A DNA stretch of 64,000 bases from assembly GCA_004022145.1 (NCBI GenBank), contig RCNU01000001.1. One strand, written 5' to 3'. A program made the position numbers and the translations under genes. Of this stretch, positions 22,016 to 29,502 are shown in pieces. The notes beneath the pieces are model-generated. The model did not search any database. It was not told the origin of the DNA and saw nothing but the letters and a program-made list of their open reading frames with translations. The stretch is from Paecilomyces variotii. Lineage: Eukaryota. How positions within the stretch are numbered: the stretch's first letter is position 1; each line of letters opens with the position of its first letter.

Positions 22016-24779
22016 TTTGGCAATAATGAGGGGGGTAGTATGTAATTATCGAGACAGTAGATCCAGGGTAAGCAGTCAATTCCTGCAGCAGGGAGAGAGC
22101 TGACAATTGACTGAACTGAGAGGAAGGAAGGGTAAATGAATGATCTGAATATACAATGGAGAGAGCTTATTAACTCAGAGACGCCCAAGTAGGAGTCAAG
22201 AAAAGCAGGGCTGGTGTTCAGTCCTGTTTGCCAGCTTGTACGCTGGATGCAACAAAGACCCAAAACAGACTTGAACAAGTGAACACAGAATGGTACAGTG
22301 GACAATGTGATTCAATTATGCCTTCTTCAAGAGAACTCTCCAGACGAACAAAGGGCCATCAGGTTATTTAACGACTTGTTCGAGTCACTAAGTATTTCAC
22401 GTCAGACATGAATGCCCCGCAGGCCGAATATCGCGCCAACTTGCAAGGGCCGCAGGATGCTCCCAAAAAGCTCGACTCAGAACCACGGGGCACCAACCGG
22501 GGATTCCAGAAGATGGATTCCCTCTTCTTGGGATGAACCCTATCGGGATCGAGACCCTGAGACCCATCTTTCGTTCTATCTTAAGCCCCCCTTTGTCAGG
22601 GGAATAGACCACAAACCTGACATAGCGAGCGAAGACCGCCGTTGGGACCCCGTCTAGAGAAACAATCGGCAACAGGACAGCCCAGATGGCGGCCCGTGGC
22701 AGCCAGGTCATCGTCCGCGAGAGCACTGCATGATATGATAGGCGGCCTTCCTTCTGGCTGCGGAGTTTCCGTGTGATGCCCTTTTGTCCAGGTTTTGTCA
22801 GGTTCAGTCAATAATAATAATCTTTTAGTCTAGTTATGTACTTACTTCGCCCGGCCGTCTCAGTTTGTGCTCGAACGCGGGGCAGATACCCCTCGATCAT
22901 TCGCGGGCGATACAGCCAAAAAGCAAACAAGATCGGATCAAAGCCCAACAGGAAACACGAGGCAAGATACAGTCAAAGCATGACAAGGCGAGACACAGAA
23001 GGGGAAAAGATGCGGGTAAGCACTGCGCTCATTACAGCGTGGGCGATTGGACGAGGCCGGCGGCGTTACAAGATAGATACAAAGCATTTGCGAGGCAATT
23101 CGACCGATTAGGGTAGGTTTTGTAATGCTGTATGTATCATAGTGCCCTCCACTCCAGGCGAATATCGCGCCAGTTTGGATTCTTTTCTTCGCCCCCTCGA
23201 TACAGCAGAATCGCTCACCAAGACGTTCGGGTCTCCGTTCCTGTTTTGGGCACTTCTGCTGCTGCTGAGAAGCCAGACGGACGTGCTATGTTCTGGCGGT
23301 GCCTGACCGCCAGACCAACTGAATGACTTTGCCCTCGATGGATCATCTTTCTGGATCGTAAGACGGAACAGCCTGACCGACTCACTAGATAGGTAACTTG
23401 GACGGATAGGAAGCGAGGAGGGTCAGTTTTCCGTCCGAGGTGGCTGGGGAGACCGCTCCAAGCGGCATTATTGCATGCTTGAGGAATAATAATAATACCA
23501 TAGAGAGATAATCTACTCTAGGTTAGCAGTAACTTTACAAAAATACCATCGGTCGTACTCTCTGAGAGCTTCGAGGACTCTGAGTAGTGAAGCGAGCAAC
23601 TACTCCACCGCAGTGCTGGAACTCACGCTCGCCACGTCGTTGAAGAGAGCCCCACGAGATTCAAACAACCCACAGATTCGCCTGCATTCACGAAGCCCGG
23701 TTTCAACCTCGAAGTGTAAGAAGAAGACCAACACCTGCAGGGGCGAACAAAGCTGATTTTGCGGCCAGAGAGGACTTGCTCATTCCTGCAAGTGGTCTAA
23801 TAATTACCCCAAGCACGGAACCAAGCACGCATCGATCCGAACACAGTAGGTAGGTGTTCTAGTCTAGAAACAAGATGATCAAGAACTACAGTAGCTAACG
23901 AGTTATCTCTTTTACCCTAAGGCACATTGATGACCTGGCAGACACCTGTAGATGCCGTACAGACGCGCAATCCTCTCAGAGCTCTCCGTGGACTGACACA
24001 CGTCTACCACGCTACCACTGTCCGACGCTTTAATGTCCAGTCTGGTATTCTAATCAGAAGCCATTGGATGGCAGAAGAAGACTAGAGAAAACTAGAAACA
24101 TGTTCGAGAGAGAGAAAAAAAAGCTGCCGAGTCTATTTCTCTTGATGGACAGTCCATCAAATGAGTCAGTCAACCCTCCTAGAGAGGGACACCAAGTAAT
24201 GTGTTCGTGAATGGCTATCTGCATCATATTACAAGAGAACTTTTAGCAGGCTGGAACTGCAGCATTGCCGTCGCCATCTGCGCTCTCCTCCACCTCCTGG
24301 TTATATATATCCTTCGGGAGCGTGGAGCAAGTTGAAGTGCTGCCACAATAAAGCAAGTACGGGTCGTACATGGGTATGAGAAATAAAACAGAAACCCGCC
24401 TTGAGGCTGTTGAACCTGCACGTCTTGTTGTGAAAACTGAACCAGATCCAAGCGAAATCCTCAACGCAACGACATCACCCTCGCATGGGTGCTTCCCGGC
24501 AAGGGGTCCGCACCCGAAAGGCATGGATGTTGTGATCGCAGCCTCCGAATGCAGGCCCTTCCCGCGAATCCGTAATGTCAACAAGCCGTAGAAAACCGTA
24601 GGGACCGCTGATCCGGAAGCTGGTCGCTGAAGCAATCACATACGCTCTTTTTTTGTCATTCTTTTTTTCTTTGGGAAAGCACTTCTGCGCAGGGCCTGTC
24701 GTTAGTGGAAGACGGTGTCAGGGAACTTTTACCTCGTCAAGCGTGCATCTGAACAGTTTTTTTGCGCGGGCGCGGTCCA

Positions 24780-25826
24780 TCATACAATGTCCCACGCTTC
24801 CTCGGCGGCGTGGGTGAACTTGCTGCATGCAACACTAGCACTCAAACTGTAGTTGCTGATACTGATCGTGTCATCCTTGAAGCTGTCTGCGAAATCATCA
24901 CGACCCTTGGCCATGGCTCCGACGAACACGCAGATGCTCTCCTTCGGGCCGAGGGACTCGACATAATCCCGGACACGCACCACAGGAGCGTCGAAACTCA
25001 GCGTGACCTTGCGACAGTTGGGCGGTAGGTGATCAGTGATCGGGTTCTTGATCACTTTCAGCAGCTTTTCTTGTGAGTTTGTGGAGCGAATAGAAAGTCG
25101 GTGCAGCAGCTGGACCATGAGACCAGCGAATCGCTTGAAGGTTCGAGGAATGCGAACGGTGGGGCTAACTTCGATGAGAACGCCCTTTGCGGTATGGATG
25201 TAGATCTGGAGTTTTCCAGCCTTGTTGATGGGTGAGTCGAGAAGTGTAAGGAGACACTGTAGACATCCAATGATAAGTAATCCAGACTAGTACACACGAC
25301 CATCTCAGCTACGGGGAGATCAGACCTGGTGGGTGATATCTGGTCGAGCGTCACTGATATCTCTGTTCATCTTCCGCATGATACCGATGTGCTCGTCGCT
25401 GTTAAGAAGCGAATACTTCTCCTCCCGGCCGCTACCACTGCGGCCGCCATGAGAGGAGCGGTAAGTCTCCAAGCTGGCATTTGACAAGACCACAATGAGA
25501 CGCTTGGTGTCCTTGTCATTGGCTGCTATCGGAACATGCTGTTCAGCGACGAGCTGCGGTAGCTCTGGAGGAGGGCACGACTGGGTCCCTAGAAAGAGAC
25601 TGTCAGTCAAACTGGACATGGAAGTATCGAGTGCCGGGTAGATAATGAATCAAGCTTGGAGTCAAGACGGAGAACTGCTTAAGTTGTTGAGGTCTGAGGG
25701 GCCAAAAAGTTCTTTGTGTAGAAAGTGAGGCTAACACTCCCTCCACGTGCTTAGTCCACGCGGGGAATACGGATTAGACTTACTCGGTCTCTTCCTCTTT
25801 CCTGCACCTTGAGGGTCGTTGGCCAT
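24780..25826 (-). CDS. nep1: 18S rRNA pseudouridine N1-methyltransferase Nep1/Emg1 (SPOUT family), 3 exons
   Basis: [92 protein letters not shown]. Confidence 0.96.
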
Positions 25827-28234
25827 GATGTGTGAGTACTGAAACAATTGTTCCCCGAAATTCAAGTGAAAGAGAGTGACAAGATCTCCCAGAATCCCAA
25901 TGTGGGTTTTCTAAGAGAAAAAGACGGCTGATTTCAATCCTTTCCGCAGCCACTAATATGAGAGAACGAGAGGGATAGATAGAAAGAGGCCAATCCCGTG
26001 GAGATGAGATGGATCAGGGCCGCAAAGGAGGATAAAGAGGGGAGGAATATTTTCTGACTGTTCGAACTCGAGAGGCAGTTTGCTGAGGTGGGATAAGATG
26101 GGGCGGGAAAAGTGTTCGTGTTGGTTGGGGCGGGATTTTTTTTTCTAGGTAGCGAGGATGTTCTAGCCTACCTGGGTATCCGCAGCATGCTCTTCTTGCG
26201 GGCCTCGGGTTCCAGAGCATCACAAGAAGCTGTAGACAAACATCCTATGGCCTGAACAAATTGCTAGTACTGGATCTTGCTTGATGGCGATGATACTGCC
26301 CAGCGAGTCATTTGTGTGACCCTGAAGGATCGACGTTACACCCAATTTATCGGGACTCCGTCACCAGTATGGGGGGTGTTTAGGATGGTCTTCCTGGCGC
26401 TATCCTGGGGTTCGGGGATTATTAGAGCGCAGTGGTTTTGTACATACATAGATCCTGGATATCGTTTTAAGGCGTCTTCTACTTCGTAGGCCAGGCATGC
26501 TTTCTATTTGATGCTTCATAAAGGGTAGGTGAGGGTCGTGTGTCGAGAGGTTAAACCGCTAAGGAGTCCTTATATATATATTTATTTTCCGATCTACCAT
26601 AGAGAGCCCAAGAACCACAAACATTCTTGACAACGGCTCCATTCCTGTCAGCAATTACATACATCCTCAGGATTCTTCGGATAGTCACGCCTGCTCATTC
26701 TATCATACACTCCCTGGGACCGGATATAACTACGGAGTAACTATTCCGTAGTACGTACGACAGTAAACATACAGTCATTATTCTCCAAGGCCTCCGTTGT
26801 TCAGCTAGCACGAGCCTCGTATAATATTCTCCTCAGCGGGCAAAGTCTTCAATAGTTTACCGTTGAGACCCAGTTTCCAACACTCTTCTAGGCAGCCTTA
26901 AACCCCCCACTGACAGGGTCTCATACCTGCAGAACCCAGAAAAATGCCCACTACGAGCTGTTCTGACACAAGGCTGGGTCCTAAATTCCCAATAGCTAGC
27001 AAACAGGGGCCATGGCAGGCAGCGAACAGTGTCAAGACTCAAGACTCAGGAGTCAGGAGTAGATACTAGAAATTAGCTCCCGTGGTGGTATCTAGACCCG
27101 GTGTCTTGTAACGTTGGTGTGTCGTAGGCATCCTCATGCAAATGGGCAAACTGTCATGTGCTAGGCTGTAGGTACGAATCGACGCCGCAAGAAAGAACTC
27201 GTATAAACTTGTGTTACACACAGAGCATAACAATAATGCACGCCACACAGTTTTCCAATCCCCCTCGCTGTTGATTTCCCCCAAGACAGGCAGCTTGCGT
27301 TGAAATGATACCTAGTCATCCACGGGGGAATGATGTTCTTGAAGCCGGATGGCGCTCCACCCAGTGACATGGCTCAGCTGGGGGTCTCGGAAACGAAGCC
27401 ATTAACGCCATCATCAAGGGGAATATGAACACGACGATGGCTTAACCGTTAGGCAGATCTTAACCGCCCAGCCAAAGGGGACAGGACAGCCTTGATCTGG
27501 CATGTCTCCAGATGGTCGATGCAGACGCAACGGCGGCCATTCAGATCGATGATCGCCACTCCGGTTCAGCCAACCTAGCCAAGGCGTCCAATGCGCCTCC
27601 GTATTGTCAGTCCCACGTCGAGGCCGGCCAACAGGGAGTGCCAACAGTTGCGTCAAGTTTCGACACTGAACGGACATCTACTGTGATGATCAAGGAGTAC
27701 GAGTAACTACTTAGAGTCTTGGGGGCGCCCATGGCCAGTCTGGTACTGCAAGTATCCAACTTGGATGAGAGAACATACGAGAAGACCACTGACTGCCTAG
27801 GACTACTACTACTATTTCCTGCTCTGTGTTAGTTATCCCACCAGTTGGTTATCATCACCTACGCTCAACAACTTTGGTGAGCTATCCTCGCCAAGTCATC
27901 CACCGTACACTACAGTACCATATTATTGCGAACCGTTCGATTGTCACCTGAAGTTCACACCACACAAACCCTCCGACGGGACCAGGAGAGATCGAAGACA
28001 CGAGAGGAATAATAATCGACTAACAAATACCTGCTACACGGAAGTGGGCGGTTGGTGATGGTTAGAGCAATATGACCGAATAAGGACTAGGGCCTCCGGC
28101 GCGTTCCCGTCGCTGATCAGCTTATCCAGTGAATCCGCCCGTGTCTCGAAAGTAAACATTCCTTTCTCTCTACCAGAACATCCGCATCCTCCCCTGCTCC
28201 ATGCTGACCCTGATGTCCAGTCAATTCTAAGGAG

Positions 28235-29502
28235 ATGCCTTGGACGGTGACAAACTCATTTAAACGGTATGGTTTCGGGCCTCAACGGTGACCTCTTCGC
28301 GGGAACGCGTGCTGACCTACTCTAGCGGCCTCATGAAAACTTACGGAAGACCCATACGGCGCGTCTTTGACGATGACTTGCGCCCGGCCGCAAAAAAGAG
28401 ACGGGTAACCTCTGGAGACGACTCGGATGAAGCAGAACACAACCTGCAATATGCCATCCGGGAATCCTCCGCCGCTATCATGTCCAGTCCGTCTCGTCGC
28501 AATTCAGTCATCTTCTCGGAAGAGACGCCGGACGATGATCTGTCAACGCCACCATCGTCCCCGCCACCCCAACTCACCCCTCCGCCAGTCAACATACGAA
28601 AGCCGACCTTTGCGTTTCTGAAGCGCAAGCGATCGCAAATCAAGGAGAGTGGCAACTCGTCTCCGTTGACGGAGGTCAACTCGAATAGTGTGCGGTCCTC
28701 CGTGGATCCGCCTCGGAAGAAGCCGCGCCAGCAGCCTTCCGTCTTGAAGCAGATGCAGCTAGATCTGGGGACGGAGGTTCGTCGGACGTGTTCCTCTTGC
28801 GGGATGGAGTATATCCCATCCAATGGCGAAGATGCCGCCTTGCACAAGAAGTACCATGACATGAATGCCACCGGAGTCGACCTGGGTAAAGCATTTGTCA
28901 AGGCCAACGCATCTCGTTGGGTGTATGAGGCGGCGCGATTTGATGAAGGATACGTGGTGATCGTGGACCGGAAGAGTTCACCCGCCGCGAAGAACCAGGC
29001 CAAGAAAGTGCTGGAAGTTGTCAGCAAGGAGCTGTCTTCTCCCGAGATCGAAGAGTCCGTTCTCTGGAGTCAGACGCGACCTCCAAAGGAGCACGAGAAA
29101 AATGGAGCTAAAGAAGAGATGGACCGATACCGCGTCTTTCTGCATATGAAGGACAGTAGATGCGTTGGCATGTGTCTTACAGAACGCATCTGGGAGTCGC
29201 GACCGGTGAAGGGTGTACGCGGGGATGCTTCAGGCAGTAACCAGACGAATAGTTCCTCAGTTACTGTTGGAGAGGAGCGTCATCCAGCCATTGTGGGCAT
29301 CTCGCGCATCTGGACATCGGGCTCTTCCCGACGAAAGGGAATCGCCATGGATCTTCTGGATTGTGTGGTGAGCAACTTCATTTATGGGTTGGATATACCC
29401 AAGGACCAAATTGCCTTCAGCCAGCCAACAGAGAGCGGATGCAGACTCGCCGAAGCTTTCTTCGGGCCCGGAGAGCAGTGGTACGTGTACAATGAAAGCT
29501 GA
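28235..29502 (+). CDS. eco1: Sister-chromatid cohesion acetyltransferase Eco1, 2 exons
   Basis: Short exon MPWTVTNSFKR, intron 28267-28325. PIP-like QMQLDLG, C2H2 finger CSSC..HKKYH and acetyltransferase motifs GISRIWT..RRKGIA..IAFSQPTESG. Confidence 0.92.

Follow-up and report, generated by a model that had tools for sequence, protein, structure and literature searches.

Self-binding transcripts and the NEP1 locus

Self-regulation by mimicry of ribosomal RNA (rRNA) is known for ribosomal proteins and for a few synthetases. We analysed a stretch of 64,000 nucleotides (nt) from Paecilomyces variotii (contig RCNU01000001.1 of assembly GCA_004022145.1), here called the window, and found three small hairpins, HP-A, P and HP-D, downstream of the stop codon of NEP1 (EMG1) on the sense (minus) strand of that gene. 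Together with related hairpins in other fungi, they are a real, undescribed and conserved cis-element of NEP1 transcripts. Its function is probably negative autoregulation, in which surplus Nep1, the presumed binder, attaches to rRNA-mimic loops in its own transcript and lowers output.

The closest described systems are yeast ribosomal proteins, which likewise have a structure resembling their rRNA site in their own intron or untranslated region (UTR): RPL30, RPS14B, RPL22B and RPS22B act through splicing, RPL1B has a 5′ UTR mimic, and RPS28B uses its 3′ UTR together with Edc3, with lower affinity expected than for the primary target (PMC7732827). In contrast, NEP1 encodes an rRNA-modifying enzyme and transient assembly factor, and its predicted array comprises three to four small hairpins that lie, depending on lineage, in the 3′ region, in intron 1 or in both. 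[quoted passage not shown] For the NEP1 array, however, we found no conserved distance to a 3′-end signal after HP-D, as judged from the closest relative (locus L002) and from 22 loci read by eye, nor any signal there common to the 22. We also know of no contact between Nep1 and poly(A) polymerase. Candidate fungal structures in RPL12, RPS13 and lysyl-tRNA synthetase are likewise conserved messenger RNA (mRNA) structures, recognised by comparison, for which binding by the encoded protein has been proposed, and one also shifts between intron and UTR, but the genes differ; NEP1/EMG1 is not named in the main text of that survey (PMC8216456), nor in the main text and three supplements of another (PMC5640933). 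No report of NEP1/Emg1 autoregulation or of this RNA structure appeared in the literature searched, most subscription papers lying outside the search.

Described ligands of Nep1 are the 18S rRNA loop with pseudouridine 1191, a second 18S site (1566-1571) and a crystallised 14-mer, with which HP-D and the intron hairpins share YUCAAC in a hairpin loop (PMC3064781, PMC2853112). The second 18S site, which Nep1 has been proposed to open (PMC3064781), is buried in a helix like one UUCAAC of P. The NEP1 hairpins differ from these ligands in the 8-nt loop of HP-D, in the loops of HP-A and of the P apex, which read NNCAAC mostly without U at the target position, and in that no pseudouridylation guide is evident. 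Both YUCAAC sites are present in the window species' own 18S rRNA, and by eye the stem beside the second site resembles that of HP-D.

Conservation of the array

The host gene (25826-24780, minus strand) belongs to the EMG1/NEP1 methyltransferases. Its exons 2 and 3 match Pfam PF03587 with 194.9 and 48.4 bits against a cut-off of 28.2; its protein matches yeast Emg1 chains in PDB (E 1.7e-80) and also Chaetomium-type Emg1 chains, and the closest named protein is Paecilomyces variotii Emg1 (98%). Equivalents of the RNA-binding arginines R88, R129, R132 and R136 of yeast, assigned by offset from the matched ranges, are intact.

One scan provided 80 further loci, the best of 353 confirmed. With the window included, 69 of the 81 rows have at least 500 nt after the stop codon, and these form 45 clusters at 90% coding identity. 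Labelled roughly by their best protein matches, the loci belong to Eurotiales, Chaetothyriales, Dothideomycetes, lichen-forming and other fungi, and Leotiomycete- or Sordariomycete-like fungi. The range covered is that of Pezizomycotina-like fungi, with no yeasts or basidiomycetes in the best 80 of the 353.

Within 500 nt after the stop codon, the HP-A pattern (GAU, NNYAAC, AUC) was found in 31 of the 45 clusters, the apex of P in 23, the core of HP-D in 17 and YUCAAC in 34; the patterns were themselves derived from the loci in which they are counted, and the 45-54 clusters are kin, so that the counts measure conservation and not independent events. The corresponding figures are 0, 0, 0 and 11 on the antisense strand, 0, 0, 0 and 11 of 28 at 1000-1500 nt downstream, and at most 1, 1, 0 and 19 in shuffles. 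For the more general feature of CAAC in a hairpin loop, rates were taken over 54 clusters of all 81 rows. On the sense strand, the first 500 nt past the stop contain 68 cases in 35 of 45 loci (3.02 per kb), and the last 200 nt ahead of exon 2 contain 29 cases in 19 of 44 loci (3.3 per kb), the latter zone extending into some exon 1 and 5′ UTR sequence at loci with short introns. Control rates are 0.13 and 0.11 per kb for antisense and 0.07-0.30 for far flanks, and none of nine other tetramers exceeds 0.58. The enrichment is about tenfold, on the sense strand only, both after the stop and before exon 2, and is absent from the flanks of neighbouring genes.

In the window alone YUCAAC is no more frequent than chance (78 occurrences against 73.3 expected, with 34 of 100 shuffles reaching 78), as the preliminary description of this sequence had cautioned for the degenerate 6-mer; it is therefore cross-species conservation that establishes the array as real. 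When CAAC in a hairpin loop is scored by one fixed rule, the 64 kb contain 11 minus-strand cases, four of them within 200 nt at the element, one of the four being a short-fold hairpin discussed below (24417-24404). The spacer from HP-A to HP-D varies from 111 to 202 nt and falls in all three frames (10, 6 and 6 of 22), with stops, so the 3′ array is not coding. Where HP-A is lacking (11 clusters), the locus L077 keeps P and HP-D, and L070 has two downstream CAAC hairpins.

Folding and covariation

HP-A (24520-24543; all hairpins here are on the minus strand) has a lower GC stem, an internal loop and a GAU/AUC stem that closes a CACAAC hexaloop (24534-24529), and is the most widely kept part of the array. 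In its alignment of 34 rows, 32 of them distinct, 80.4% of cells are paired, and the covariation score was reached by 2 of 500 shuffles.

Hairpin P (24398-24467) consists of a lower stem (24467-24459/24406-24398), a middle stem (24452-24443/24418-24407) that buries UUCAAC (24414-24409), and an apical stem-loop (24437-24422) with a CACAAC loop (24432-24427). In the fold of the 549-nt 3′ region the buried UUCAAC pairs with 24451-24443 at probabilities of 0.82-0.99. The alignment of 23 rows is 81.7% paired, with 16 cells changed on both sides of a pair (reached by 1 of 500 shuffles); slid controls do not exceed 57.6%, and folds of single sequences yield the same long hairpin. These rows were picked on the middle UUCAACA, so that its invariance among them is circular; without that pick, UUCAAC stands behind the apex in 23 of the 27 loci with an apex, its partner strand varying. 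The buried UUCAAC folds mainly into the upstream strand in 20 of 23 loci. One position is G-U in 21 of the 23 rows and never G-C, a hint that the letters and not only the pairing are selected, and the G-U pairs of P form only on the NEP1 sense strand. A covariance model of P (R1) gave 39 matches at E<0.01, all in NEP1 sense and mostly training rows; its lower stem is one column off, making it a rough cross-check only. In three loci (L004, L010 and L022) the middle stem is kept with letters swapped between the strands, L004 having UCAAC on the 5′ strand.

HP-D (24321-24347) proved to be exactly as the preliminary description had drawn it: a stem of 8-9 base pairs and an 8-nt loop holding UUCAAC (24336-24331). 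Its 8 canonical pairs and one bulge give -10.0 kcal/mol (z -2.95; 3 of 200 shuffles as good), and the loop is open with probability 0.55 in the 549-nt fold. UCAAC is invariant in 23 rows, and 7 of the 9 pairs show two-sided change, with 20 such cells (1 of 500 shuffles) in an alignment that is ungapped and misplaces bulged stems; of 22 stems, 20 beat flank shuffles at p<=0.05. The loop conservation and stem covariation that the preliminary description proposed to look for in the NEP1 3′ regions of relatives are present, the compensatory change being of moderate strength and among related sequences. Strict UUCAAC is fixed both in HP-D and at the buried site of P.

A second hairpin, proposed at 24417-24404, folds only in isolation (-2.5 kcal/mol). 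In context its three outer pairs have a probability of 0.0 and its UUCAAC is the one buried in P; at best it represents a minor alternative way for the 3′ arm of P to fold. On the alignment it is 67% paired with 7 two-sided cells (0 of 500 shuffles), but of its four pairs two fall in columns that also belong to P's lower stem, and in short local folds of the loci with P it passes in the window and L002 only. What stands of the proposal that the NEP1 mRNA bears Nep1-type loops is a conserved sense-strand array, of whose three loops one had been identified, those of HP-A and the P apex having been missed.

Hairpins in intron 1

In 13 clusters a hairpin with UUCAAC or UCCAAC ends 17-22 nt before the branch-point A of intron 1, the branch point being assigned by its consensus (loci L025, L028, L037, L038, L040, L044, L016, L030, L055, L078, L015, L073 and L076). 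The stems of these hairpins show no relation to one another or to the 3′ array. In several clusters a second hairpin lies 40-80 nt further upstream, its loop reading CACAAC or CGCAAC. Of the 11 clusters in which HP-A is missing, five carry the branch-point hairpin (those of L019, L025, L038, L055 and L069), and L080, also without HP-A, has another intron hairpin; both the 3′ and the intron forms occur in L037, L040, L073 and L076. Because a tree built from 54 exon-3 rows leaves its deep forks open, we make no claim that the intron hairpins arose independently. In the window, the CUCAAC of intron 1 to which the preliminary description pointed is present (25691-25686) but lies in a 19-nt loop and not in a Nep1-type hairpin.

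Chance or coding constraint is scarcely credible as the source of these hairpins, even granting that YUCAAC is at chance level in the window and that in some loci the intron hairpin, read in the exon 2 frame, would translate into a recurring peptide. That hairpin stands in different frames in L014, L016 and L017 and in L025, L037, L038 and L040, and the antisense, downstream, shuffle and tetramer controls, together with the three-frame spacers of the 3′ array, largely refute such an explanation.

Two further observations concern the introns. A contig at L021 (positions 1-812), from a lineage with the branch-point hairpin, has the introns of the convergent neighbour spliced and starts inside NEP1 intron 1, a weak hint of intron 1 retention. 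Just inside intron 2 of L058 is an HP-A-like hairpin.

Nep1 as the probable binding protein

Yeast Nep1 recognises C/UUCAAC and binds it best within a hairpin loop; in the crystal a Nep1 dimer holds one or two copies of a 14-mer with a UUCAAC hexaloop (PMC3064781), contacting RNA through R88, R129, R132 and R136 (PMC3064781, PMC2275143). It has been suggested to remodel those rRNA sites that form helices once the ribosome is mature (PMC3064781), and Emg1 sits on helix 31 in the 90S particle (PMC5354517). Three-hybrid clones of archaeal Nep1 have a common CAAC core with loose 5′ positions; the bare hexamer is bound at 12 µM, and nM binding needs a 3′ GC extension (PMC2853112). At the NEP1 locus, YUCAAC in a hairpin loop is offered by HP-D, in the window and in its 17 clusters, and by the intron hairpins.

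The array and the branch-point hairpins are what self-binding predicts, and to that extent the idea of the preliminary description, that Nep1 binds a substrate mimic in its own mRNA, is partly supported. Its suggestion that the mRNA may even be methylated is unlikely to be right. Nep1 methylates only pseudouridine (PMC2853112), so most loops could not be methylated: the target position, second in the hexamer, is U in 52 of 118 loops and A, C or G in 66, the latter being usual in HP-A and the P apex. The mimic is best explained as a binding decoy rather than as a methylation substrate.

Under negative autoregulation, saturation of pre-ribosomes would leave free Nep1 dimers, which would bind the hairpin loops through their arginine cleft, several weak sites adding up, and loop binding would lower NEP1 output as a negative feedback. 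In the intron type a bound dimer may block use of the branch point, so that intron 1 would be retained and a premature stop encountered; the stretch that such a dimer would cover is the one used for U2 loading. The 3′ array may act on the nuclear fate or stability of the mRNA, whether by retention, 3′-end formation or decay, and the buried UUCAAC could make P a switch opened by Nep1. A more elaborate scheme is conceivable though rather doubtful. It would make the rRNA-mimic hairpin a module that filamentous ascomycetes use in two spots, blocking splicing at the branch point, while in the 3′ UTR binding to the open loops would let Nep1 pry the buried UUCAAC from P and switch its fold, as proposed on 18S rRNA; intron 1 retention would expose an in-frame AUG and give Nep1 without its basic N-terminal peptide, possibly cytoplasmic, which could read the 3′ array.

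Several results weigh against autoregulation by Nep1. YUCAAC is matched by 49 of the 118 loops counted, some of these being coding, and the other 69 depart from it; the loops of HP-A and the P apex are NNCAAC or NNUAAC, CACAAC in the window, and so have the CAAC core only and not the YUCAAC consensus. The 3′ GC extension required for high affinity of the archaeal protein is absent from these loops, and binding of yeast Nep1 to an 18S 11-mer is weak (6.3 µM; PMC3045603). In HP-A, two-sided change is confined to two pairs, the inner GAU/AUC stem varying hardly at all and showing none; HP-D has 20 two-sided cells, but its slid controls come close with 17-18; and RNAalifold on a gappy MAFFT alignment of P returned no consensus structure. 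The window species has the 3′ form only, with no intron hairpin, and splicing in its 3′ UTR was not seen in three RNA-type contigs (X1, X2 and X11, described below). In the Penicillium-like L007 and L049 the 3′ array is absent, with essentially nothing in its place, and the kinship of the clusters, noted above, applies to all of the counts.

Part of this evidence would suit a different reader. The NEP1 element might be bound by another CAAC-loop protein, either a Khd1-type KH-domain protein or a reader of rRNA loops such as Tsr3, which reads the same rRNA loop, and might serve localisation, stability or co-regulation; we regard this as unlikely. In its favour, Khd1 targets are enriched for YCAACAA (bioRxiv 10.1101/2023.03.17.532881), and 69 of the 118 loops depart from YUCAAC. 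Many of the loops, however, are ACAAC or GCAAC and also miss the Khd1 word, the flanks of neighbouring genes lack enrichment, and among four short-pattern matches to HP-A in the species' own genome the full pattern with a CACAAC loop is found only at NEP1. The fixation of strict UUCAAC in HP-D and at the buried site also speaks against another reader.

Binding by Nep1 might also have no repressive effect, the array acting as a sponge, as a chaperone holding aggregation-prone Nep1 in solution when it is in surplus, or as a localisation or output-raising signal. In favour, the 3′ array has up to four sites, where a simple switch would need fewer; the loci have no conserved effector signal after HP-D; and no 3′-UTR splice was seen. 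Such an outcome is nevertheless quite improbable, in that the intron form, 17-22 nt before the branch point in 13 clusters, is best explained by splicing interference, and the known self-binding yeast ribosomal proteins are repressive (PMC7732827). If negative autoregulation by Nep1 is correct, a transient ribosome assembly enzyme counts its own free pool as ribosomal proteins do, and natural ligands other than rRNA would widen the recognition rule of Nep1 from YUCAAC to hairpin NNCAAC. The element would also provide a clean reporter for the methylation-independent RNA-binding role of Nep1, which is its essential role and the one altered in Bowen-Conradi syndrome.

Transcripts across the array

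RNA-type contigs X1, X2 and X11 come from three studies, their RNA label being a software guess and the contigs strandless. All have both NEP1 introns (25783-25589 and 25325-25257) spliced out and run unspliced through the hairpins, X11 ending at 24235 and X2 at 24006, in agreement with the expectation that the transcript spans HP-D as well as 24417-24404. The element is thus on the sense strand of the transcript for its proposed binding protein, although the contigs themselves do not tell strand. They do not place the mRNA 3′ end, because they are strandless and a spliced plus-strand RNA lies downstream. Another contig, X6, is unspliced and DNA-like and shows strain differences only; none of its 25 substitutions falls in 24314-24596, which is weak support at best.

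The downstream RNA (23600-23920 in X1, plus strand) has GT-AG introns at 23716-23768 and about 23850-23921, no long open reading frame, and an orientation convergent on NEP1; it is possibly an antisense long non-coding RNA. Its presence raises the question of whether the array is a separate non-coding RNA, a small nucleolar RNA (snoRNA) or other, from the NEP1 3′ region or from an antisense transcript. The array could then be intronic in a minor isoform, and of 34 loci, 20 do have a 5′ splice-site-like motif between the stop and HP-A, where 8.5 would be expected and the antisense strand gives 7, for a pattern chosen after looking at the loci. We consider a separate RNA very improbable. Rfam 15 covariance models gave no match to the element in 23000-27000 of the window, where the one match (E 0.84) is unrelated and elsewhere, and none in the 10 of 80 relatives searched. 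A C box was found in 0 of 22 loci, a D box in 1 and ACA in 1, and the longest complement to the species' own ribosomal DNA unit is 11 nt. The spacers between HP-A and HP-D vary, the G-U pairs work only in NEP1 sense, and similar loops recur at the intron 1 branch point with other stems.

In the window, 5′ splice-site-like, branch-like and 3′ splice-site-like motifs lie within about 37 nt (24696-24733, minus strand), an arrangement common to L002, spanning about 37-40 nt in the two, and unspliced in the contigs. Such motifs are packed into about 18-40 nt just after the stop in L002, L010, L022, L029, L031, L042, L053 and L081, which is shorter than usual fungal introns. We rejected a 3′-UTR intron: the motif is enriched, but no joint is present in X1, X2 or X11, contigs of this kind dropping rare forms. 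Gaps in L021 relative to L019 and L020, also considered as a 3′-UTR intron, belong to the convergent neighbour gene. A 3′-end-like signal in the preliminary description, TATATATAA, is indeed present 12 nt after HP-D (24309-24301) and may be a 3′-end efficiency element, but is not kept in L002.

NEP1 gene structure and neighbouring features

The coding part of exon 1 (25784-25826, start codon at 25826) encodes a short Lys/Arg-rich peptide and is joined to exon 2 across the 195 nt of intron 1 (25589-25783), which has in-frame stops if retained. Exon 2 (25326-25588) carries the arginine equivalent to yeast R88, and exon 3 with the stop codon (24780-25256) the equivalents of T127, R129, R132 and R136. 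Intron 2 (25257-25325, 69 nt) has an unusual donor (GTCTGA, 25325-25320), yet is spliced in all three contigs. An alternative C-terminus from a GT overlapping the stop codon was rejected, being absent in L002 and having no contig joint.

Near the 3′ end of intron 1 is an AUG (25617-25619) that is in frame with exon 2 and open into it. The same layout, with AUG in the last 60 nt of the intron, is found in 28 of 44 clusters; the count for the other two frames is 5 and 0 and for the frames of intron 2 it is 1, 6 and 7 of 39, the acceptor and branch letters somewhat biasing the other frames. Translation from 25619 would give Nep1 without the basic exon 1 peptide, and several database proteins are annotated from this AUG, such annotation being a prediction and not evidence. 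No EMG1 localisation signal was found in the available text of PMC5418833; the exon 1 peptide may act as a nuclear localisation signal.

In exon 2 of several relatives, the codons for S-L-L-N-S can form a small hairpin with a CUCAAC loop. The first Ser is TCG in 24 of 51 loci (17% of exon 3 Ser codons), and Asn is AAC in 47 of 51 (70% background). At 28264-29502 on the plus strand is a gene for an ECO1/ESCO-type acetyltransferase (Pfam PF13880 and PF13878).

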